The notes: generated by a model from the sequence alone, not told the origin. DNA of 64,000 nucleotides from Terriglobia bacterium (GCA_965262675.1 OZ253554.1:570997-634996); one strand, 5' to 3'. Positions 20,790 to 64,000 are shown, numbered from the stretch's first letter. A program made the numbers and translations.

Positions 20790-20876
20790 GGAGAGGTGCT
20801 AGAGCGGTTGAATAGGCCGGTCTCGAAAACCGGTGTGGGGGTAACTCCACCGTGGGTTCGAATCCCACCCTCTCCG
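20790..20876 (+). tRNA. tRNA-Ser(CGA)
   Basis: Acceptor stem GGAGAGG/CCTCTCC, anticodon arm ccggt-ctCGAaa-accgg, long variable arm, T-loop GGTTCGAATCC. CCA is not encoded. TATAAT at 20764. Confidence 0.97.
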
Positions 20877-21957: not shown

Positions 21958-22003
21958 GAATCACGACAAAAGATCGTTCCGGATACGCAAGATTCACGAC
22001 CCA
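21958..22003 (+). repeat. 281-bp junction element, internal fragment (left part missing next to the mini-IS21)
   Basis: gaatcacgacaaaagatcgttccggatacgcaagattcacgaccca matches the middle of the copy at 52349-52558. Confidence 0.9.
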
Positions 22004-22226
22004 AGAACAGGGTGCCGTGGTCCAGGCATGGATTCAGGAAGTCGAGGAGAAGGGACTTGAGGACGGAGAATTTCTACGTGTTCGGGGTGCCGCCCTGGGT
22101 TATTTCAACCGCATCCGACCCGAACTTCAGATCCTGTTGTGGCAGAGGAATCCCCAGGGAACCATTCGTCTCCCGACAACGGTCAATCAAGCCCGCTTGA
22201 GGGCTGTGGCCCAGATATATTTCTGA
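22004..22226 (+). pseudogene. 3' fragment of an unidentified gene
   Basis: Open frame with protein-like sequence (QGAVVQAWIQEVEEKG...RAVAQIYF*) begins abruptly at the element fragment. Confidence 0.4.
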
Positions 22227-25710: not shown

Positions 25711-27791
25711 CAGGGCCATTTTATTGTTCGTTCGGCGGTTTTCGGCAGCCCTGGTTGAATCCGGAGCTGGCTATTTTGTTTTCGATGTGGCAGAGTATCC
25801 GTCATGGGAGGGCCACCGGCACAGGGTTGCGATATTGATCTGCGGGCAGTGGCGGTGCGTCCGACCTGGGGCGCGGAGGAACACCGGCGCTGGGACAGGC
25901 TGGTGGCGGCCCATCACTACCTGCCGTTTCATGGCGTGTTCGGGAAGGGCTTGCGCCACGTCGCGACGCTGGGCTCGACCTGGCTTGCGCTGATCGGCTG
26001 GCAGCCGGGCGCGTTCAAGCTGGCCGCGCGCGACCGCTGGATCGGCTGGAGCGCGGAGCAGCAGTTCCAGCGCTTGCATCTGATCGCCAACAACGCGCGC
26101 TTCGTCATCCTGACGCCGCGCACGGTGCCCAATCTGGCCTCGCGGGCGCTGGGTCTGAGCCTGCGGCGGCTGTCGCAGGACATGCAGGCGGCGCACGGCT
26201 ACCCCGTCTTGCTGGCAGAGACGTTCGTGGATCCGGCCCGCTTTGCCGGGACCTGTTACCGCGCGTCGAACTGGCGCTGGCTGGGCCGGACCCGCGGCTA
26301 TGCCCGGGAGCCCGGCGGCGCGGCGCGCTGGCGCCATCACGGCCAACCCAAGGAGATCTTCGTGTTCGAACTCACCGGCCATGCCGCCGAGGCGCTGAGC
26401 CAGACCGAGACGCCGGCCTCGTGGCACGGTGAACCCCGAACCGCGCCCATGGCCGCGCCGCGTCTGCGCAGCCTGTTCGAGCGCCTGGGCGAAGTGCCCG
26501 AGCGGCGCCGCGCCCGGGGCAAGCGCTACCCGCTCCACACCGTGCTGACGCTCGCCGTCGCGGCCCGCCTGGCCGGCTACCGCGGGGTGACCGCCTTTGC
26601 GCAGTTCGCCCGCCTGCTCAGCCAGGAGCAACTCCAGGCCGTGGGCGCCTTCTACAGCCCCTCGAAGCAGCGCTACACCGCGCCCTCGATCACCACCTTC
26701 CACAACATCCTCGCGGCGCTTCCGCCCGAGACCCTCGACAACGCCATCGGCCGGTGGGCCGGCCAGTACAGCGCCGCTCACGCCCCGGTGGCCATGGACG
26801 GGAAGGACCTGCGCGGCGCCTCGGCGCAGACCGGGCACGGGCGCCGGATGATGGTCGCGGCGGTCGAGCACGGCTCCGGCCTGGTCCTGGGTCAGAAAGA
26901 GATCGACGACAAGACCAATGAAATCCCCGCCGTGCGCGACCTGTCGGGCGGCCTCGACCTCGCCGGACGCACCGTCACCCTCGACGCGATGCATGCCCAA
27001 CAGGACACCGCCCGCTGCCTGCTCGACCAGTGTCACGCCGACTACGTCGTCACCGCGATCAAGGACAACCAGCCCACGATGCATGACGACCTCCGGTCGG
27101 TCGACTGGAGCGCCGCGCCCTCGCACGAAACCCTCGAGAAGGCCCATGGCCGCATCGAGCGCCGCCGTTGCGCCGCCATCGACCTCTCCGACACCCCCTG
27201 GGACGGTTACGCCAACCTCTATGGACGCCGCCAGGCGATGCGCATCGAACGGGAGCGCGAGACCGTCAAGACCGGCGCGTGCAGCGTCGAGGTGACCTTT
27301 TGCCTGACCTCGCTGGATGCGGAGCGCGCCAGTCCCGAGCAACTCCTGGCCCTGGTCCGGAATCACTGGCACATCGAAAACCGTCTGCACTACGTCCGCG
27401 ACTTCACCTACGATGAAGACCGTTGCCGGGCCTATGTGCGCCACTTGCCGCGCAATCTCGCCTGCCTCACCAACGCCGCCATCGCCATCGTGCGCTGCCA
27501 GGGGCGCTTCCGCTACCTGCCCGAGGCCAACCGTCATTATGCCGCCCGCGCGCAGGATGCCCTCGACGCCATCCTGAATGCCCCCACAGCCTGACCCCCC
27601 CCGACATCCCTGCGGAATCGGGCGCGACGCGCCGCTGGACACCTGTGCCCGCCGGGCACGAAGACGCCATGCGACGCCTGCAAGCGGCCCCCTTTACGCG
27701 TCTCCCGCAACCCCGCGACGCGCCGATCCCCTTCCAACCTACGCGATCTTCCTCATCCCGCGTCCCGAGGCGGGACAATAAAATGGTCCTG
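25711..27791 (+). mobile_element. ISAs1-family IS, complete, with 10-bp target duplication
   Basis: Inverted repeats CAGGGCCATTTTATTGT and ACAATAAAATGGTCCTG. Direct repeat CTGCAGAGGG at 25701-25710 and 27792-27801. Confidence 0.93.
25804..27594 (+). CDS. ISAs1-family DDE transposase with N-terminal DUF4338-like domain
   Basis: N-terminal HHYL...ARDRWIGW...NNARF...ETFVD...GTCYRASNW; C-terminal AMDGKDLRG, KTNEIP, TLDAMHAQ, HGRIERR and HWHIENRLHYVRD. Confidence 0.92.
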   Translation: MGGPPAQGCDIDLRAVAVRPTWGAEEHRRWDRLVAAHHYLPFHGVFGKGLRHVATLGSTWLALIGWQPGAFKLAARDRWIGWSAEQQFQRLHLIANNARFVILTPRTVPNLASRALGLSLRRLSQDMQAAHGYPVLLAETFVDPARFAGTCYRASNWRWLGRTRGYAREPGGAARWRHHGQPKEIFVFELTGHAAEALSQTETPASWHGEPRTAPMAAPRLRSLFERLGEVPERRRARGKRYPLHTVLTLAVAARLAGYRGVTAFAQFARLLSQEQLQAVGAFYSPSKQRYTAPSITTFHNILAALPPETLDNAIGRWAGQYSAAHAPVAMDGKDLRGASAQTGHGRRMMVAAVEHGSGLVLGQKEIDDKTNEIPAVRDLSGGLDLAGRTVTLDAMHAQQDTARCLLDQCHADYVVTAIKDNQPTMHDDLRSVDWSAAPSHETLEKAHGRIERRRCAAIDLSDTPWDGYANLYGRRQAMRIERERETVKTGACSVEVTFCLTSLDAERASPEQLLALVRNHWHIENRLHYVRDFTYDEDRCRAYVRHLPRNLACLTNAAIAIVRCQGRFRYLPEANRHYAARAQDALDAILNAPTA

Positions 27792-32821: not shown

Positions 32822-32949
32822 GCGGATAAGTAGAATAAGCGGGCTTCGCAGTACAGGGACTGGCAAGACGCACGACCGGAATGTCGCCGTTGCGGTGTTA
32901 TGTTGAGCCGGAGGGCGCCAGGACGGGAGAATCACGACAAAAGATCGTT
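32822..32949 (+). repeat. 281-bp junction element, right-truncated copy (128 bp)
   Basis: Runs from GCGGATAAGTAGAATAAGCGGG to ACAAAAGATCGTT, then unrelated sequence. Confidence 0.95.
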
Positions 32950-37976: not shown

Positions 37977-38360
37977 TCATGGGATCGGCGAGCCGTCTTC
38001 CCGTCTCAGGCCGCCCCGGACGAGGATGCCGTGGTAGTCCTCGGCCCGCGCCGGGTTGCCGCGGACGATGATGACCTCGCCGGGCGAAAACGTGTCGGGC
38101 GTATAGCCCTGCCGGCGCAGGGGGCCGGCCGCCGAGCCGCCGAAGCTGACGTCCCATTCCTCCAACGCGCCGTTCTCGCCCTCGACCTCGACGATCAGGA
38201 ACGGATGCGGGTTGACCAGCCGCCATTCCTTGACGACGGCCGTGATCTCCACGGTCTGGTCCTCGTGATAGATGTTGTTCGTGCTGTGGTGGGCCGATGC
38301 CGGCGCCGCGAGGAACCCCAAGCTCACACCGGCCAGGGCCAACAGCGTAACGAGCCTCAT
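37977..38360 (-). CDS. DUF6152-like secreted protein
   Basis: SAHHS after the signal peptide; VNPH, W and L.RQG...PGE motifs. Confidence 0.78.
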   Translation of the reverse strand: MRLVTLLALAGVSLGFLAAPASAHHSTNNIYHEDQTVEITAVVKEWRLVNPHPFLIVEVEGENGALEEWDVSFGGSAAGPLRRQGYTPDTFSPGEVIIVRGNPARAEDYHGILVRGGLRREDGSPIP

Positions 38361-41558: not shown

Positions 41559-41831
41559 GATAGCGCCGCGTTGGCGGTGGACTGCGACGGAGGGCTCGGG
41601 TTGACGGTCGGACCGGCGGTGATGGACCTCGCCATTGAACGGGCGGGCCAGTATGGCGTCGGCGTCGCCGTGGCTTTCAACGGGGGCCACTACGGGGCGG
41701 CGGCATATTTCGCGCATCGTGCGCTCGACAAGGGAATGATCGGCATATCGATGACCTCGGGCGGCGTCTCGGGTGTGCCGACAGGGGGCGCGGAACCCTT
41801 GCCAGGCCTGAACCCCATCGCCATCGCAGCG
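41559..41831 (+). pseudogene. Internal fragment of an Ldh_2-family (malate/L-lactate/ureidoglycolate) oxidoreductase
   Basis: VDCDGGLG...AMDLAIERA-like...NGGHYGAAAYF...GMIGISMT...GLNPIAIAA, cut at both ends. Confidence 0.85.
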
Positions 41832-41877
41832 GATAAGTAAAATAAGCGGGGTTCGCAGTACAGGGACTGGGAAGACG
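41829..41877 (+). repeat. 281-bp junction element, right-truncated copy (49 bp)
   Basis: GCGGATAAGTAAAATAAGCGGGGTTCGCAGTACAGGGACTGGGAAGACG, 2 mismatches to the consensus. Confidence 0.93.
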
Positions 41878-44256: not shown

Positions 44257-44356
44257 GCGGATAAGTAAAATAAGCGGGCTTCGCAGTACAGGGACTGGCA
44301 AGACGCACGACCGGAATGTCGCCGTTGGGGTGTTATGTTGAGCCGGAGGGAGCCAG
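44257..44356 (+). repeat. 281-bp junction element, right-truncated copy (100 bp)
   Basis: Runs from GCGGATAAG to GGAGGGAGCCAG. Confidence 0.95.
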
Positions 44357-48530: not shown

Positions 48531-48615
48531 TGCTGGTGGTGGGAATCGAACCCACAATCCCTTACGGGAACCGGTTTTTTGAGACCAGCTCGTGTGCCAG
48601 TTCCGCCACACCAGA
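48531..48615 (-). pseudogene. Degenerate tRNA-Leu(CAA)
   Basis: Reverse complement ctggtgtggcggaactggcacacgagctggtctcaaaaaaccggttcccgtaagggattgtgggttcgattcccaccaccagca. T-arm, long variable arm and discriminator A are intact; G1 is lost, the anticodon loop has 8 nt and the D-stem has mismatches. Confidence 0.82.
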
Positions 48616-48646: not shown

Positions 48647-48668
48647 GCGGATGAGTAAAATATGCGGG
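48647..48668 (+). repeat. 281-bp junction element, 22-bp degenerate left-end remnant
   Basis: GCGGATGAGTAAAATATGCGGG versus consensus GCGGATAAGTAAAATAAGCGGG (20/22). Confidence 0.8.
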
Positions 48669-50706: not shown

Positions 50707-51021
50707 GCGGATAAGTGAAATAAGCGGGCTTCGCAGTACAGGGACTGGCAAGACGCACGACCGGAACGTCGCCGTTGCGGTGTTATGTTGAGCCGGAGGG
50801 AGCCAGGACGGGAGAATCGCGACAAAAGATCGTTCCGGATACGCGAGATTCACGACCCAAAGATCGTTCCGGATACGCGAGATTCACGACCCAGGCACAC
50901 GAATCCGGCTTCGGCCTTTTGCCGTCTTCAGAGCCAGTCCGTTTCAGTGGGTTGCACAGCCGGGTTAACGGGTGGTGCACGCGAAGGCAGGCCGAGGCAG
51001 TCCAGGATTTTCTGGGTAGCG
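50707..51021 (+). repeat. 281-bp junction element, full copy with internal 34-bp tandem duplication (315 bp)
   Basis: Runs from GCGGATAAGTGAAAT to TTCTGGGTAGCG. aaagatcgttccggatacgcgagattcacgaccc occurs twice (50825-50892). Confidence 0.97.
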
Positions 51022-51097
51022 TGAAAACAACGCGGTGCTCGAGGCGGATCGCCTTTTGCGTGGACGAAGCATTGAACTGGCTGCATAGGAGCGAACA

Positions 51098-52084: not shown

Positions 52085-52350
52085 TGGAACGCTCAATCGA
52101 TGCCCTCGAGGAATTGTCTCAGGCCAGAGTCGGTCCGTTCCATTGGCGACTCTGCATTGCGATGGGGTTGCTCACGTTCATCAATGGTTACGACACATTC
52201 AACCCCGCTTACGTAATTCATTATGTGGCCGGACCCTGAGGTCTGCAGCCGGGGCAGGCAGGACTCCTGGTGTCGAGTGGATTGGTTGGATTCCTGGTGG
52301 GTGCCCTCGCCCACGGCATCATTGCAGACCGCTATGGATGTCGAGTAAGC
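52085..52350 (+). pseudogene. MFS aromatic-acid transporter, decayed N-terminal fragment
   Basis: LQPGQAGLLVSSGLVGFLVGALAHGIIADRYGCR (MFS motif A), cut at the element. Confidence 0.7.
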
Positions 52351-52558
52351 GGATAAGTAAAATAAGCGGGCTTCGCAGTAGCTTCGCAGTACAGGGACTG
52401 GCAAGACGCACGACCGGAATGTCGCCGTTGCGGTGTTATGTTGAGCCGGAGGGAGCCAGGACGGGAGAATCACGACAAAAGATCGTTCCGGATACGCAAG
52501 ATTCACGACCCAGGCACGCGAAGGCAGGCCGAGGCAGTCCAGGATTTTCTGGGTAGCG
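52349..52558 (+). repeat. 281-bp junction element, both ends present, with 11-bp duplication and 82-bp deletion (210 bp)
   Basis: gcttcgcagta is duplicated; the deletion lies between two GCAC; ends in TTCTGGGTAGCG. Confidence 0.96.
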
Positions 52559-52747
52559 CTGGTCTACTTTGTGATGCCCATCGATGCGATTCCCGACTTC
52601 ATTCCCTTCACCGGTTTTGCCGACAATTTGGCTGTTCTGCTCTTGGCCACGGCACTGGTCGCCATTCACATCAAACCCGAACACAAGAAGATGGCAGAGG
52701 AAACATGGGAAAGATTCTGGTCCAAGGCTAATCCCGATACTCGCTGA
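52556..52747 (+). pseudogene. YkvA/DUF1232 protein, C-terminal fragment
   Basis: ALVYFVMPIDAIPDFIPFTGFADNLAVL...*; the first codon GCG is also the element's terminal GCG. Confidence 0.85.
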
Positions 52748-54648: not shown

Positions 54649-54892
54649 CGACAGCTATCAACTCATAGGCAAGGATCAGATGGAACCTTCCATTCTGAAC
54701 CGCAGACTGCGCCCGTGGCGACCCGGGGACGCTTCTAGGGCCCAATCCCTAGTCCAGGGTGTTCTGGCTGCGTATAAACACAGTGAGTGGCTCTCGGACC
54801 CGTTCAGATGGGAGACCAGTGTCTTTCCTTTGTTCTACTTCACGAAGACCCGCGACACACCCAGCAAAGCCGTGTACGAGCGGATATTCGCG
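54641..54892 (+). pseudogene. N-terminal fragment of a hypothetical gene, cut by the element
   Basis: The ATG overlaps the upstream stop; the frame ends YERIFA, then DK* from the element. Confidence 0.5.
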
Positions 54893-55023
54893 GATAAGTA
54901 AAATAAGCGGGCTTCGCAGTAGCTTCGCAGTACAGGGACTGGCAAGACGCACGACCGGAATGTCGCCGTTGCGGTGTTATGTTGAGCCGGAGGGCGCCAG
55001 GACGGGAGAATCACGACAAAAGA
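54890..55023 (+). repeat. 281-bp junction element, right-truncated copy with 11-bp duplication (134 bp)
   Basis: Runs from GCGGATAAG to ATCACGACAAAAGA. Confidence 0.95.
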
Positions 55024-58438: not shown

Positions 58439-58834
58439 ATGTCTGAATTAACTTTGGAAAAGGTTATGGCTCGTCTCGACAACGGTTGTAATCCTGTGGA
58501 ATTGGCGGGTCATGGTCGCGAGTCAACCCACAAGGGATATCTGACCTGGCTCTTGAACACGTCGCACTGGCCAGCTGCGAACCACGCGCTTATTTGTCTC
58601 GTCGAAGCTGCCGTTCCCCATTGGCCTGACCGGCATAGAGTCAGCGCACATCGCTGGACTCAACGCTGTCCTGATAACCTGTATACCCTTTACGAACAAC
58701 GGGTCGGCAACGGCAAAGTCGACCTGATCGTGAGAGCTGGCGACGGCAACGATAGAGACCTTCTTCCCATCGAGTTGAAGACAGACAGCGCGGTCGGTAG
58801 TGATCAACTGACCAGGATGTCAGTCGAAGGTGCG
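58439..58834 (+). pseudogene. PD-(D/E)xK nuclease N-terminal fragment, cut by the element
   Basis: RESTHKGYLTWLL...VDLIV...PIELKTDS...DQL, then ADK* running into the element. Confidence 0.72.
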
Positions 58835-59039
58835 GATAAGTAAAATAAGCGGGCTTCGCAGTAGCTTCGCAGTACAGGGACTGGCAAGACGCACGACCGG
58901 AATGTCGCCGTTGCGGTGTTATGTTGAGCCGGAGGGAGCCAGGACGGGAGAATCGCGACAAAAGATCGTTCCGGATACGCGAGATTCACGACCCAGGCAC
59001 ACGAATCCGGCTTCGGCCTTTTGCCGTCTTCAGAGCCAG
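58832..59039 (+). repeat. 281-bp junction element, right-truncated copy with 11-bp duplication (208 bp)
   Basis: Runs from GCGGATAAG to CTTCAGAGCCAG. Confidence 0.96.
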
Positions 59040-60020: not shown

Positions 60021-62966
60021 TCAGGGCACCTCGACCACCGGGACGACGGGCAGTGTGGTGAAGATCCGGTCGACCCCATCGAGTTCGAAGGCCACCGCCG
60101 AGAAGCGTCCCGGTTCGGACGTCAGGCACCGCACCGACCCCACGAAGTCCGACGTATCGGCGGTGGGGAAGATCTCGTCGATGAACCGGGAGTCCTGGCC
60201 GTTGGCGGCAAGCGGGATCATCGTTTCGTCGAGCACGATGCCGTCCCGCATCAGCCGGCACCGCACCAGAAGGGCGGTCGTGTCCCGGTTGTGGATGGCG
60301 ACGCCCGTGTTGATGCCGCCCTCCTGGCGGCGCACCGGGACCAGGGCATCCCGGACCGGGGGACTGTCGCCGACCCCGGCGACTCCGAGGGCGGGGATGT
60401 CGAAGCGCAGGACCCCGCCAATGGGACCGTCGGCCGTCACCGCGACCGATCCGACCACCTGCCCCCCGCGGCCGTGGGTCGAGATCGTCAGTTCTCCCAA
60501 CGGGTTCATCGCCGTGACAGGGCGCAGGGCGCCGTCGTCACCCACTTCAAGATCCTCGGTGATATCCACCAGCGACTCGGCGGCGATGGGATCGCCTTGT
60601 TGATCGTAGAAGTAAATGGCGGGACGGACCGGATTGGCGCCCGCGTTCACCAGCACCAGTGAGGAGACGATCTTCCCGCCATTGGCGAAATGCGTGAAGT
60701 CCAGCCGTGTGGCGTCCTGTTCCTGTTCCTGCCCCTGTTCCTCCTCTTGCTCCTGATCCTGTTCTTCCTCTTGTTCCTGCTCCCGATCCGGGACCGCCGG
60801 TACCGGCACCACCGGCAGGGTGGTGAAGATCCGGTGGACGCCATCCAGTTCGAAGGCCACCGCCGAGAAGCGCCCCGGTTCGGGCGTCATGCACCGCACC
60901 GACCCGGCGAAGTCCGAGGTGTCGGCGGCGGGGAACACTTGGTCGATGAATCGGGAGTCTTGGCCGTTGACCGCAAGCCGGATATCCGCCTCTTCGAGCA
61001 CGGCGCCGTCCCGCATCAATCGGCATTGCAGGGTCAGAGTGGCCGTTCCCCGGTTGCGGACCGCCACGCCCGTGTTGATGCCGCCATCTAGGCGGCGCAC
61101 CGGGAGCAGGGCATCCGGAACCGTCGGGCTGTCGCCGACCCCGGCGACCCCAAGGTTGGGGATGTCGAAGCGCAGCACCCCGCCGATGGAACTGGGCGCC
61201 CGGACCGAGACCGATCCGACCCGCTGTCCCCCGCGGCCGTGGGTGGCAATGGTGAGTTCGCTCAGGGGGTTCATGACTGCCCGGGGGCTCAGGGCGCCGT
61301 CGTCCAGGACCTCCAGATCCGGGGTCAGGCTCACCAGGGACCGGGCGGCGATGGGATCGCCGTCCTGATCGTAGAAGTAGATGGCGGGGCGGGCCGGGTA
61401 GGCGCCCGCGTTCACCAGCGCCAGCGTGGAGGTGATGAACCCCCCATTGGCGAAGTGGGTAAAGTCCAGGTCGGCCACGGGCGTGGCCTCGGGCGAAATG
61501 CGGTGGGAACCGGCGCCGGCCGCGCTCACCGCGCGCAGATGGAAGAAATAGACGCGGCCGTTGATCAGACCGGCAATGGTGTGGGCGCGATCGGTCGATC
61601 CGGTCGAAATCCACTCGCCCTCGCCGTCGATCCGGTACTCGTAATGCTGAATCCGAGAACTGCCCTGGCTGGACGGCGCATTCCATCGTAGCGTCACCTC
61701 CCCATCGCCGCCCTCCGCCCGCATGGTCCCGGGATAGCTGGGCGGGCGCGTGATGACCGTGGGTGTCGCCACCGCCGCCGTCGCCGCACTGGTCAGCATC
61801 TCCGGGTTGCCGAGATCGTCGGTGAAGCGCACCCGCACCCTGATCCTCTTCCCCTCGTCGTCGCCGGTCAGGGTGTAGGTCGCTGCGGTCGCACCAGGGA
61901 TGTCCATCGGGTTCGACAGGCCGTCCGCATCCACCCGCACCCACTGGTAGGAGAAGGTCGCCGGCAGCCCGTCGGCGTCGGAGATGCCCGTGGTCGAAGC
62001 CGTCAGCACCTGCCCGACCCCCGCCGTGCCGGTAATCGTGGGCGCCCCCGTCGCCGGGGTGTTCGCCCGCGTGCTGAATGCCGTCGCCCCCATGACCCAC
62101 TCGCTGGATCCGCGCGCATTGGTGACACTGACCCGTACGTCGTACGCCGTATTCGCCTGAAGACCCCCGATGGCCGCGCGCGTCACCGGCGTTTCGCCCG
62201 CGTACCAGTTGCTCCACTCGGTGGTGCCCTGCACCCGGTAGTGCAAGTAGTTGCGAACGAGCGGCGAGCCGCCGTCACCCGGGTGCGTCCACTCGATGGT
62301 GAGCGTCTTGGTGGTGGCCGACACCAGGGTCGGCCGCGTGGGATCCGGCGGTTTGGTGGGGGTGGGGGAAACCGTCAACAGCAACCCGCCGGATCTCGGC
62401 CGGCCGTTATTTACGATTGCTCCGAAGGAAATGGTCGTACCGATCGGCGTATCCGCTGTGACGGTCAATGTCGCCGTTATTGTCGTGTTGTTAAAGATCT
62501 CGGTGTAGATCGTGTGATGGCCCTGAATGTTGTTCCATATGCCCGGACCCCTCGACGGCGAAAAACTGGCGCAAAAGTATTTCCCCGCGCCGCACGACAT
62601 CGGGTTCGAACCCAGATTGGAATGCGCGACGGAAGTGGACGTAGACGGGACATGGAAACCGGCATACTCATTTCCCGGCTGAGGCCCCGCGGTGCGGGTG
62701 ATCGTGTAGGTGTACGTACCGCCCGGAACTGGCGACGTCTCGCCGTGCAGGGACCATGTTGCGCCTTCAGCGAATTGCGAGATCGTCGTCTCGGCAGCAT
62801 GGAGCAAACTTGCAAAGCCGAGCGCCAGGGCGGCCAACGCCCCGGCTGCCGCCCGCGCGCCGCGCGGCAGGGTCGCGGCGGTCCGTGGCGGCGGCGCGAC
62901 GTCCGCCCGGCAGGTCCGCGGGTCCTTGCTCCCGGCGATGGCGCCGGACTCCGACAAACGATCCAT
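60021..62966 (-). CDS. Large secreted/surface protein with fibronectin type III domains and a duplicated C-terminal domain
   Basis: Signal-like segment, two FN3 domains, a PATGAPTITGTA repeat, and two roughly 225-aa repeats (LDFTHFANG...IFTTLPVVPV) joined by an EQ-rich linker. Confidence 0.85.
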   Translation of the reverse strand: MDRLSESGAIAGSKDPRTCRADVAPPPRTAATLPRGARAAAGALAALALGFASLLHAAETTISQFAEGATWSLHGETSPVPGGTYTYTITRTAGPQPGNEYAGFHVPSTSTSVAHSNLGSNPMSCGAGKYFCASFSPSRGPGIWNNIQGHHTIYTEIFNNTTITATLTVTADTPIGTTISFGAIVNNGRPRSGGLLLTVSPTPTKPPDPTRPTLVSATTKTLTIEWTHPGDGGSPLVRNYLHYRVQGTTEWSNWYAGETPVTRAAIGGLQANTAYDVRVSVTNARGSSEWVMGATAFSTRANTPATGAPTITGTAGVGQVLTASTTGISDADGLPATFSYQWVRVDADGLSNPMDIPGATAATYTLTGDDEGKRIRVRVRFTDDLGNPEMLTSAATAAVATPTVITRPPSYPGTMRAEGGDGEVTLRWNAPSSQGSSRIQHYEYRIDGEGEWISTGSTDRAHTIAGLINGRVYFFHLRAVSAAGAGSHRISPEATPVADLDFTHFANGGFITSTLALVNAGAYPARPAIYFYDQDGDPIAARSLVSLTPDLEVLDDGALSPRAVMNPLSELTIATHGRGGQRVGSVSVRAPSSIGGVLRFDIPNLGVAGVGDSPTVPDALLPVRRLDGGINTGVAVRNRGTATLTLQCRLMRDGAVLEEADIRLAVNGQDSRFIDQVFPAADTSDFAGSVRCMTPEPGRFSAVAFELDGVHRIFTTLPVVPVPAVPDREQEQEEEQDQEQEEEQGQEQEQDATRLDFTHFANGGKIVSSLVLVNAGANPVRPAIYFYDQQGDPIAAESLVDITEDLEVGDDGALRPVTAMNPLGELTISTHGRGGQVVGSVAVTADGPIGGVLRFDIPALGVAGVGDSPPVRDALVPVRRQEGGINTGVAIHNRDTTALLVRCRLMRDGIVLDETMIPLAANGQDSRFIDEIFPTADTSDFVGSVRCLTSEPGRFSAVAFELDGVDRIFTTLPVVPVVEVP

Positions 62967-63271: not shown

Positions 63272-63498
63272 TGTTGTTTTGCACCCAAAACTGATCCACT
63301 TAAATCGGGTATTTGCATCGAAAGTTGACCCACGTGTAAACCCATTCCTGCCGATTAACCGAGCAGGAGGGCAAAGGAGTGATAGACGTGGCGATATTGA
63401 GTGTGATCAGACGCTGGCATGTACGAGAGGGCATATCGATTCGAGAGATCAGCAGGCGGACGAAGCTGTCGCGCAATACGATCCGCAAACACTTGGCG
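63272..63498 (+). mobile_element. IS21-family left end and istA 5' fragment, cut by the element
   Basis: TGTTGTTTTGCACCCAAAACTGATCCAC...AAAGTTGACCCAC end repeats; VIDVAILSVIRRWHVREGISIREISRRTKLSRNTIRKHLA. Confidence 0.85.
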
Positions 63499-63776
63499 GA
63501 TAAGTAAAATAAGCGGGCTTCGCAGTACAGGGACTGGCAAGACGCACGACCGGAATGTCGCCGTTGCGGTGTTATGTTGAGCCGGAGGGAGCCAGGACGG
63601 GAGAATCACGACAAACGATCATTCCGGATACGCGAGATTCACGACCCAGGCACACGAATCCGGCTTCGGCCTTTTGCCGTCTTCAGAGCCAGTCCGTTTC
63701 AGTGGGTTGCACAGCCGGGTTAACGGGTGGTGCACGCGAAGGCAGGCCGAGGCAGTCCAGGATTTTCTGGGTAGCG
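63496..63776 (+). repeat. 281-bp junction element, full-length reference copy
   Basis: GCGGATAAGTAAAATAAGCGGG...GGATTTTCTGGGTAGCG, with no indels relative to the other copies. Confidence 0.97.
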
Positions 63777-63840
63777 TCCGGAGGATGAATGGCTGCAAGG
63801 ACTCGCATGTGACCCTGGCGCCGCGGGCATTCCAGCACAT

Positions 63841-64000
63841 CTAGCCCGCCTTTCTCACGGGTTTTCGTCGCGAAGAGTCGGAGACGCCGTCAGAGCAAGG
63901 CGCGCGCCCGGAGGGCACCGGAGGCGTACTTGACGGTACGTCGAGGAGCCCGACGAAGCGGAACGCAGCGCTGGCGGATGGATCCGGCACTGTAGCAGAC
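63841..64000 (+). repeat. MITE-like repeat, copy 3 (runs off the window)
   Basis: ctagcccgcctttctcacgggttttcgtcgcgaagagtcggagacgccgtcagagcaagg...ctgtagcagac matches 19074-19284 but lacks the internal module. Confidence 0.85.

Follow-up and report, generated by a model that had tools for sequence, protein, structure and literature searches.

The repeat at 52349 and its surroundings

The DNA analysed here (the window) is a stretch of 64,000 nucleotides, positions 570997-634996 of a 5.54-Mb single-contig genome (G000) from an uncultured soil acidobacterium; positions of up to five digits refer to the window and longer ones to the genome. A repeat unit at 52349-52558 begins with GCGGATAAGTAAAAT and ends with ...GGATTTTCTGGGTAGCG. 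Its left-end 21-mer, searched with up to three mismatches, was found nine times in the window (32822, 41829, 44257, 48647, 50707, 52349, 54890, 58832 and 63496), always on the + strand, where 100 shuffles gave an expectation of 0. The repeat is real, far beyond chance. Its right-end 19-mer was found just three times (51003, 52540 and 63758), and at 63758-63776 the surrounding element continues for another 1.5 kb, which does not fit the original prediction of a general right end. When the nine copies were aligned, the left edge was common and knife-sharp and the right edges varied from copy to copy, so that within the window there is already one fixed end, not two. The copies are pieces of a 1817-bp element (E), delimited by BLAST with a 3-kb query and by end mapping. 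The features of the window that concern E are:

21958..22009, + strand: internal E fragment (E 108-159), without both ends
32822..32949, + strand: E copy, 128 element bases; a chimera whose two neighbouring parent copies have stayed apart in the sister genome, G001
41829..41877, + strand: E copy, ~49 element bases; Ldh_2 fragment on the left, portal-like fragment on the right
44257..44356, + strand: E copy, 100 element bases
48647..48668, + strand: diverged E stub, ~22 bases, adjoining a tRNA-like fragment (48531-48615, - strand)
50707..51022, + strand: E copy, 282 element bases plus a 34-bp tandem duplication; stops 1 nt past GCG, right before the position of CCGGA
52102..52348, + strand: left flank of the unit, 5′ part of a gene for an MFS-type transporter, broken off after ..GIIADRYGCRV where the element terminus begins
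52349..52558, + strand: the unit, E bases 1-281 from which 73 bp are deleted internally (E 164-236) and in which 11 bp are duplicated near base 22
52559..52747, + strand: right flank of the unit, C-terminal fragment of a DUF1232 (YkvA-like) gene
54890..55023, + strand: E copy, 123 element bases, with the 11-bp duplication
58832..59039, + strand: E copy, 197 element bases, with the 11-bp duplication
63376..63495, + strand: N-terminus (40 codons) of an istA-like gene of the IS21 type, interrupted by the E terminus
63496..64000, + strand: start of a full-length E copy that continues to 65492; tnpA on the - strand from 63841

The MFS-type flank carries an in-frame TGA (52237-52239), and its MFS_1 match (E=6.6e-4, profile positions 28-62) lies under the Pfam cut-off. 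The right flank, recognised as DUF1232/YkvA by Pfam at E=3e-11, is unrelated to the left one; the two flanks are therefore not contiguous. According to the original prediction, both ends of the unit use a GCG core shared with the flanking reading frames. Direct reading of 52349-52558 confirmed that the unit begins and ends with GCG. The GCG at 52556 does continue in frame into the YkvA fragment, the one at 41829 comes after ...NPIAIA of the Ldh_2 fragment, and the nucleotides directly left of GCGG differ among copies, as had been proposed. A search of the whole window against Rfam at gathering thresholds gave two tRNA matches only, neither of them inside the unit, and the first 145 element bases plus flank, folded as ssDNA, were no more stable than shuffles (z = -0.90).

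Several other features of the window were recorded. Six head-to-tail copies with a 108-bp period (859-1698; 72-79% identity over 300-nt frames) probably represent a repetitive coding region, and 1845-2070 holds compact GC-rich, palindrome-containing repeats spaced by 68, 28 and 40 nt (family D5; 96-97% identity among three of the four copies). In an ORF of 596 aa at 25804-27591 (+), the transposase domains DDE_Tnp_1_assoc and DDE_Tnp_1 occur together with an N-terminal region that resembles Druantia DruA (E=1.6e-22). At 60037-61101, 300-nt direct repeats 765 nt apart and 82% identical lie in a 1021-aa fn3-domain ORF (- strand), a region with several length variants in public contigs.

The tRNA-like fragment at 48531-48615 is a marginal match (29.7 bits against a gathering score of 29) that looks like part of a tRNA gene; on one side of it is the E stub at 48647, and on the other the end of an IS4-like element of which the genome has four copies. 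One contig each of the public runs X1 and X11 joins 46549 straight to an element start, at a point where this genome has the IS4-like insertion and the tRNA-like fragment instead. These contigs hint at a further variant of the array in other samples.

The parent element and its family

E is present in two full copies in the genome, at 634492-636488 (63496 in the window) and at 671618-673434, 37 kb beyond the window. Both ends are common to the two. Each finishes with ...AACGATCCCTT, followed by different DNA, and that end was seen only in these copies. The termini, GCGGATAAG... and ...GATCCCTT, are unrelated to each other, which makes them two different ends without terminal inverted repeats. 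The invariant terminus, 5′-GCGGATAAGTAAAATAAGCGG..., lies downstream of the stop codon of an opposite-strand transposase gene (tnpA) with Zn-finger, HUH and Tyr motifs. Since tnpA reads toward the GCGG end, the origin end is downstream of the gene, and in the IS91 family the end downstream of tnpA is the oriIS side, according to the available text of PMC13181058. The left edge of the unit corresponds to this oriIS-side terminus, and its right edge is a truncation point in the C-terminal coding sequence of tnpA.

The transposase frame of the copy at 671618 (- strand, one frameshift) runs into the repeat and ends in ...AAIHPPDATQKILDCLGLPSRAPPVNPAVQPTETDWL before its stop codon. The "right end" of the unit, GGGTAGCG, is thus inside conserved C-terminal coding sequence: it is the reverse complement of the codons for ..ATQKIL.., and the right edge encodes ..DATQKILDCLGL.. 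of tnpA. In alignments the motif is kept in ISCR1 and ISVsa3, with I502, L503 and L506 invariant. The original prediction had pointed to a 5-bp symmetry about the joined ends. ATTTT and AAAAT are indeed each 7 bp from the joined GCG on inspection; the ATTTT half is transposase coding sequence (..QKIL..), because the right end consists of tnpA codons.

Neither full copy in this genome is undamaged. In the one at 63496, E base 349 is followed by an inserted dispersed repeat of 178 bp (about 63845-64021), within the transposase gene, which keeps HUH and the conserved Tyr and has an interrupted C-terminus. The one at 671618 has, besides its frameshift, Phe replacing the conserved Tyr. With both copies damaged, the array may be a fossil in this genome; G001 has an intact transposase gene of 527 aa (L044:6859-8439, - strand). 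The dispersed repeat of ~178 bp itself gives well over 100 BLAST rows genome-wide, at 70-100% identity.

The - strand ORF to the right of the last array copy contains Zn_Tnp_IS91 and the start of Y2_Tnp. For the transposase, both Pfam matches are above their cut-offs (58.8-62.9 bits against 26.3, and 87.5-90 bits against 20.9). NCBIfam ISCR_clade_Ia matches at E=3e-99 with 332.9 bits, under its curated cut-off of 925, and the transpos_IS91 equivalog at E=8e-20 with 71.2 bits, under a cut-off of 125. By tblastn against plasmids, the annotated transposases of ISCR1 and of ISCR2/ISVsa3 are 38-41% identical over 90-94% of the protein and have the same columns of four Cys, H-x-H (NLNLHLHM) and the Tyr of LERLxRY. 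On these matches, E is classed as a distant ISCR-like member of the IS91 family and as an equivalog of neither NCBIfam model.

E also resembles ISCR elements in having its origin end downstream of the gene. It differs from them in its score against the clade Ia model, in its host, an uncultured soil acidobacterium, in that the annotated copies carry no resistance genes, and in having a clear far end, common to both full copies; to our knowledge, ISCR elements have been described as lacking a recognisable terIS. In resistance regions, ISCR2 copies that are truncated on the far side and keep the origin end are common. The terminal sequence of E is presumably unrelated to the ISCR origin consensus.

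Junctions, target sites and the sister genome

Genome-wide, the left end occurs 18 times within 68 kb (603818 to 671618), and all 18 copies are on the + strand. Three further occurrences are outliers: a pair of diverged copies lies at 4.57 Mb, and a single copy on the - strand at 2.28 Mb (2275146). In genome order the array copies retain 128, ~49, 100, ~22, 282, 281, 123, 197, full, 281, 42, 111, 375, 53, 427, 54, 792 and full lengths of element bases. In 16 of the 18 the origin terminus is exact and everything beyond a variable point is missing, with 21 to 792 bases kept. A BLAST search with the element listed 17 truncated copies with the origin terminus, of which 16 belong to the array and one is 2275146, four fragments without it, and no fragment in the genome that keeps the far end alone. 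To the left of the last full copy, ~330 bp at 671282-671617 match their own reverse complement at 69% identity; this stretch includes an inverted, degenerate piece of E (bases 19-86), the sole inverted E fragment in the array. Two DUF6152 genes, at 37980-38360 (-) and L026:10914-11345 (-), lie inside array modules, each next to an unannotated gene.

Relatives of E show similar arrangements. A second family member at 4.57 Mb, 66% identical, has a ~100-base stub 4.9 kb upstream of, and co-oriented with, its longer copy, and a relative in another genus (G022), 72-77% identical, has three co-oriented copies within 13 kb whose BLAST matches stop at query positions 777, 126 and 277. Exact matches to the left-end 21-mer in genome contigs were confined to the sister genome (14 loci). 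Metagenome contigs contributed four loci, too few for statistics; three share the same first ~29 bases among themselves, one of these (L063) with a tnpA ~76% identical, and the fourth looks unrelated.

The sister genome G001 is 97-99% identical to this one in shared segments. Its island also has 18 co-oriented copies, all +, with other truncation points (18 to 1817 bases), a different module order and one segment inverted relative to G000. The two genomes together gave 31 junctions with distinct truncation points or flanks: 16 belong to the G000 array, one lies elsewhere in G000 and 14 are from G001 only, the three that are common to both being counted once. The list was made by hand from BLAST ends and by-eye inspection and is uncertain by ~2 nt in places. 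A fixed right end is not borne out by this larger set, in which the copies of G000 retain anything from 21 to 1817 bases.

Whether GCG comes from the element or from the target was assessed at three junctions with an uninterrupted comparator, two of which are well-resolved empty sites. For 63496, the orthologous, inverted segment of G001 is 96.5% identical over 1.7 kb, and its istA-like gene runs uninterrupted for ~280 codons more, reading ..ACACTTG GTG AAC GGC.. (..KHLVNG..). The empty site ..ACACTTG/GTGAACGG compares with ..ACACTTG/GCGGATAAG in G000, where only the first G could be shared with the target. The GCG at 63496 does come after ...IRKHL of the HTH/IstA-like N-terminus, as originally noted; istA does not share it, and the "Ala" comes from the element, because the uninterrupted gene reads GTG (Val). 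The G001 empty site matches G000 up to the origin terminus; on the far side of the element, the G000 flank does not take up the sequence of that site again. At the G001 copy 687603, G000 reads ..GGCGGACT/CCGACC.. and shares no base with the element, and a paralogue with 88% identity to the left flank of 54890 reads ..TTC/GAG.., sharing one. Uninterrupted sequences thus lack the GCG expected at a common core. With GTG and CCG at the empty sites, GCG belongs to the element, as its first three bases, and is not a core shared with the target.

The remaining two junctions, for which the comparators are distant only, allow an overlap of 2-3 nt: two homologues of Ldh_2, 43% identical, read FAAP with GCG for the Ala at 41829, and a 74%-identical paralogue of the YkvA gene has GCA. 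This overlap, the GCG at the start and end of the unit, and a 281/282 boundary common to three copies with different flanks would all suit a self-contained unit of ~210-280 bp with two defined ends, moved through a circle by a recombinase acting in trans at a target-shared GCG core. We consider such a unit very improbable in view of the empty-site sequences, of a right "end" inside conserved tnpA coding sequence through which the 63496 copy reads straight on, and of the rarity of right junctions that finish in GCG, which number only two among the 31 independent ones of the two genomes, both after 281 element bases. Contigs of four public runs break at the repeats; no circle junction of the 52558-to-52349 type (CTGGGTAGCG-GATAAG) was seen among them, which, since contigs do not display such junctions reliably, is no evidence either way. 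The unit has one true end only and is not a two-ended element, and its reading as a transposon remnant corrects the idea of a GCG-core recombination system. From that idea the trans-acting HUH enzyme survives, IS91-type HUH enzymes having been among the options named and the full-length copies encoding an ISCR-like IS91-family transposase; the GCG core does not.

The left flanks of the 18 copies show no consensus of the kind known for IS91 targets (CTTG/GTTC), and only one of them ends in CTTG; the probable reason is that most of these junctions are secondary. CTTG stands at the end of the one true empty site, and ATTC comes directly before a paralogue of the far-end flank.

Comparison of the two genomes also shows how copies have changed after insertion. 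Where G001 reads ..TraB/E(1-100)/843 bp/E(1-128)/.., G000 has ..TraB/E(1-128)/.. (the copy at 603818, window 32822), and this copy combines the variant of the left copy at base 12 with that of the right copy at ~base 94. These two informative sites carry the signature of a crossover that would have deleted 843 bp. G001 reads ..MFS′/E(1-18)/TCGTAACC.., which corresponds to the 52349 copy of G000 deleted from base 18 to 118 bp past the next copy, with TAAG on both sides as a 4-bp microhomology; the 18-base copy is clearly a later deletion of a longer, 52349-type copy. One common left flank adjoins 375 element bases in G000 and 512 in G001, each then followed by different DNA, and the full copy at 63496 shares its far-end flank, and not its left flank, with a full copy in G001. 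The evidence group REARRANGEMENT for the preferred explanation given below is made up of the module map, the 603818 chimera, the TAAG copy and the 375/512 pair. Recombination among co-oriented copies plus some illegitimate deletion suffices to account for the unrelated gene fragments beside each copy, of which the unit, with an MFS 5′ part on one side and a DUF1232 3′ part on the other, is an example.

The right edge of the island (673653-676169; L027/L028) holds a P4-type tyrosine integrase split into two ORFs, followed by a PIN / FitA-like toxin-antitoxin pair, and sequence conserved with G001 starts again at 676274. Near this edge, no att-like repeats of the tRNA at 20790-20876 were found at a length of at least 18 nt.

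With gene cassettes separated by co-oriented repeats and a P4-type integrase gene directly past the last copy, the island might be viewed as an integron-like or island-integrase cassette array in which the repeats are attachment sites for that recombinase. We give this almost no credence: the integrase is split, the repeats are colinear transposon pieces that include coding sequence, no Rfam family or attC-like structure was found, and the "cassettes" begin and finish inside genes. An integron cassette array in the strict sense was rejected on the same grounds, there being no IntI and no significant fold.

Breakpoints, mechanism and known systems

The truncation points are not scattered evenly along E. 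Six of the 31 junctions lie exactly before an E CCGGA (after base 54 twice, after base 128 twice, and after bases 282 and 427), and nine are within 1 nt of one. When breakpoints were jittered by ±10, 20 or 40 nt in 200,000 trials, such counts were reached at a frequency of at most 1.5e-5. The site after base 128, ..AAAAGATCGTT↓CCGGATACG, is similar to the true far end (..AAAACGATCCCTT↓) as well as to the context of the nick at the origin (↓GCGGATAAG). In 19/31 junctions the E base following the break is C. On the flanking side, the first base is G in 19/31 (p=5e-4; 0.003 allowing for junction assignment) and the first two are GA in 11/31 (p=8e-6; conservatively 3e-4). Breaks also recur after base 100 (twice) and base 111 (three times), where there is no CCGGA, and the known IS91 rules explain neither these nor the G/GA flank bias. 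The G022 copy of the 126 type departs from its longer neighbour at the equivalent of base 128, with GTCGAC as the next bases, not CCGGA; as judged from G022, related elements in other genera have not kept the internal CCGGA, and there the hot spot may be positional or terminus-like instead of a mimic of the nick site.

The asymmetry of the truncations suggests rolling-circle or one-ended transposition of E. Taking the evidence together, the unit is probably an oriIS-end remnant of a 1817-bp ISCR-like IS91-family transposon of the rolling-circle (HUH-tyrosine) type. According to this proposal, the transposase would nick at ↓GCGGA and peel the + strand off toward its own gene. Transfer would often stop early, by preference just before an internal CCGGA that mimics the nick site (bases 54, 128, 282 and 427), giving origin-end copies that are born short, as in the IS801 experiments. 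Homologous recombination and occasional illegitimate deletion among the co-oriented copies would then remove or swap the DNA between them, so that each copy is now found between unrelated gene fragments. Later erosion is shown directly by the three G000/G001 sequence pairs; early termination we infer. For the clustering and co-orientation, the obvious conjecture is that a strand-specific transposon moving as a single strand would hop locally.

How much of the truncation occurred at birth is where a second scenario competes with early termination. All copies could have landed at full length and lost their far sides after insertion, none being born short. Deletions would begin inside the element through transposase nicking or abortive rolling-circle replication from the origin, and microhomology repair and inter-copy recombination would then erode it from the far side. 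Much in the comparison with G001 speaks for this, including the 18-base copy with its 4-bp microhomology, the flank that keeps 375 bases in one genome and 512 in the other, and the chimeric copy at 603818; in the cases with a known ancestor, later recombination or deletion explains the structures equally well. A search of both genomes and of genus and family synteny found no short copy between contiguous target bases. In the other genus and family genomes only paralogous outer-membrane genes and dispersed repeats matched, and they contained no empty site for 32822 or for the isolated copy 2275146. Because no truncated copy is a simple insertion with contiguous flanks, birth at short length is not directly shown here. 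Bardaji et al. take the same view of most genomic IS801 fragments, in the available text of their paper (PMC3189936). Against erosion as the only process, identical breakpoints recur beside different flanks (two each at 54, 100 and 128, three each at 111 and 281/282), which fits a sequence-directed event better than random deletion. The 427-base copy joined to istA, with a known ancestor, shows no microhomology, and partial transposition yielding such fragments has been demonstrated experimentally for IS801 (PMC3189936, available text). We therefore regard truncation wholly after insertion as possible but unlikely, and the remnant produced by early termination and later erosion as the preferred reading.

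IS801 offers a close parallel. As described in the accessible part of PMC3189936, trapped fragments of 229, 360 and 679 nt had the origin end in common and each stopped at an internal site, and partial transposition of full elements was frequent; most fragments in finished genomes were attributed to reorganisation, with copies as recombination substrates. The present array fits both conclusions, and would combine partial transposition with later reorganisation. E is like IS801 and IS91 in keeping the origin end, in its recurrent internal stops and in a transposase acting in trans (PMC3189936; PMC13181058; both as far as available). It differs in the sequence at the breaks and in the density of the fragments. 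By the same partial source, IS801 fragments end at a far-end-like tetranucleotide (GAAC) and are few and scattered (17 in several genomes), whereas the breaks of E fit no one tetranucleotide and have as their clearest regularity a CCGGA directly behind them, and 18 co-oriented copies lie in 68 kb.

A more distant resemblance is to the Helitrons, eukaryotic rolling-circle transposons that always need their start end; the far end is frequently skipped or arises de novo, and truncated or chimeric copies are flanked by gene fragments. Helitrons belong to another host domain and have a helicase-fused transposase and AT-dinucleotide targets; we compared the two by description only.

Origin-end mini-fragments as such are of a known kind, documented for IS801 in the available part of PMC3189936, and E is a new, distant ISCR-like member of its family. 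What is unusual here is the density of the fragments, their strict co-orientation, the reshuffled array of the sister genome and the breakpoint hot spots. A thin full-text search turned up no published description of such an array.

A bolder possibility, to which we attach a low likelihood, is that the island is a live battery of rolling-circle origins. Solo ends with at least ~90 element bases, a length that holds both blocks conserved across related elements, could then be fired in trans by one intact transposase, with the cut sites set mainly by the bases 3′ of the nick. If so, each module, made up of an origin stub and the DNA on its right, would serve as a starting point for one-ended transposition, and the locus would be an ISCR-type gene-shuffling array outside the context of antibiotic resistance. 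The enzyme would read ↓[G/C]CGGA at the origin and internal stops and ↓G[A/C] at targets, and would thereby differ from IS91, where the rule is a 5′ tetranucleotide.

On the preferred reading, a single agent of a known kind explains both the puzzling repeat and the graveyard of gene fragments that surrounds it. ISCR and IS91 elements have been studied almost only in clinical resistance plasmids, and here a relative is found in an uncultured soil acidobacterium. The recurrent breaks before a mimic of the nick site give a testable hint on the choice of termination points in a poorly characterised enzyme family. The recombination, deletion and reshuffling that 18 co-oriented origin ends have undergone can be read from two genomes that are nearly identical, and together these form a natural data set on element decay and island remodelling.
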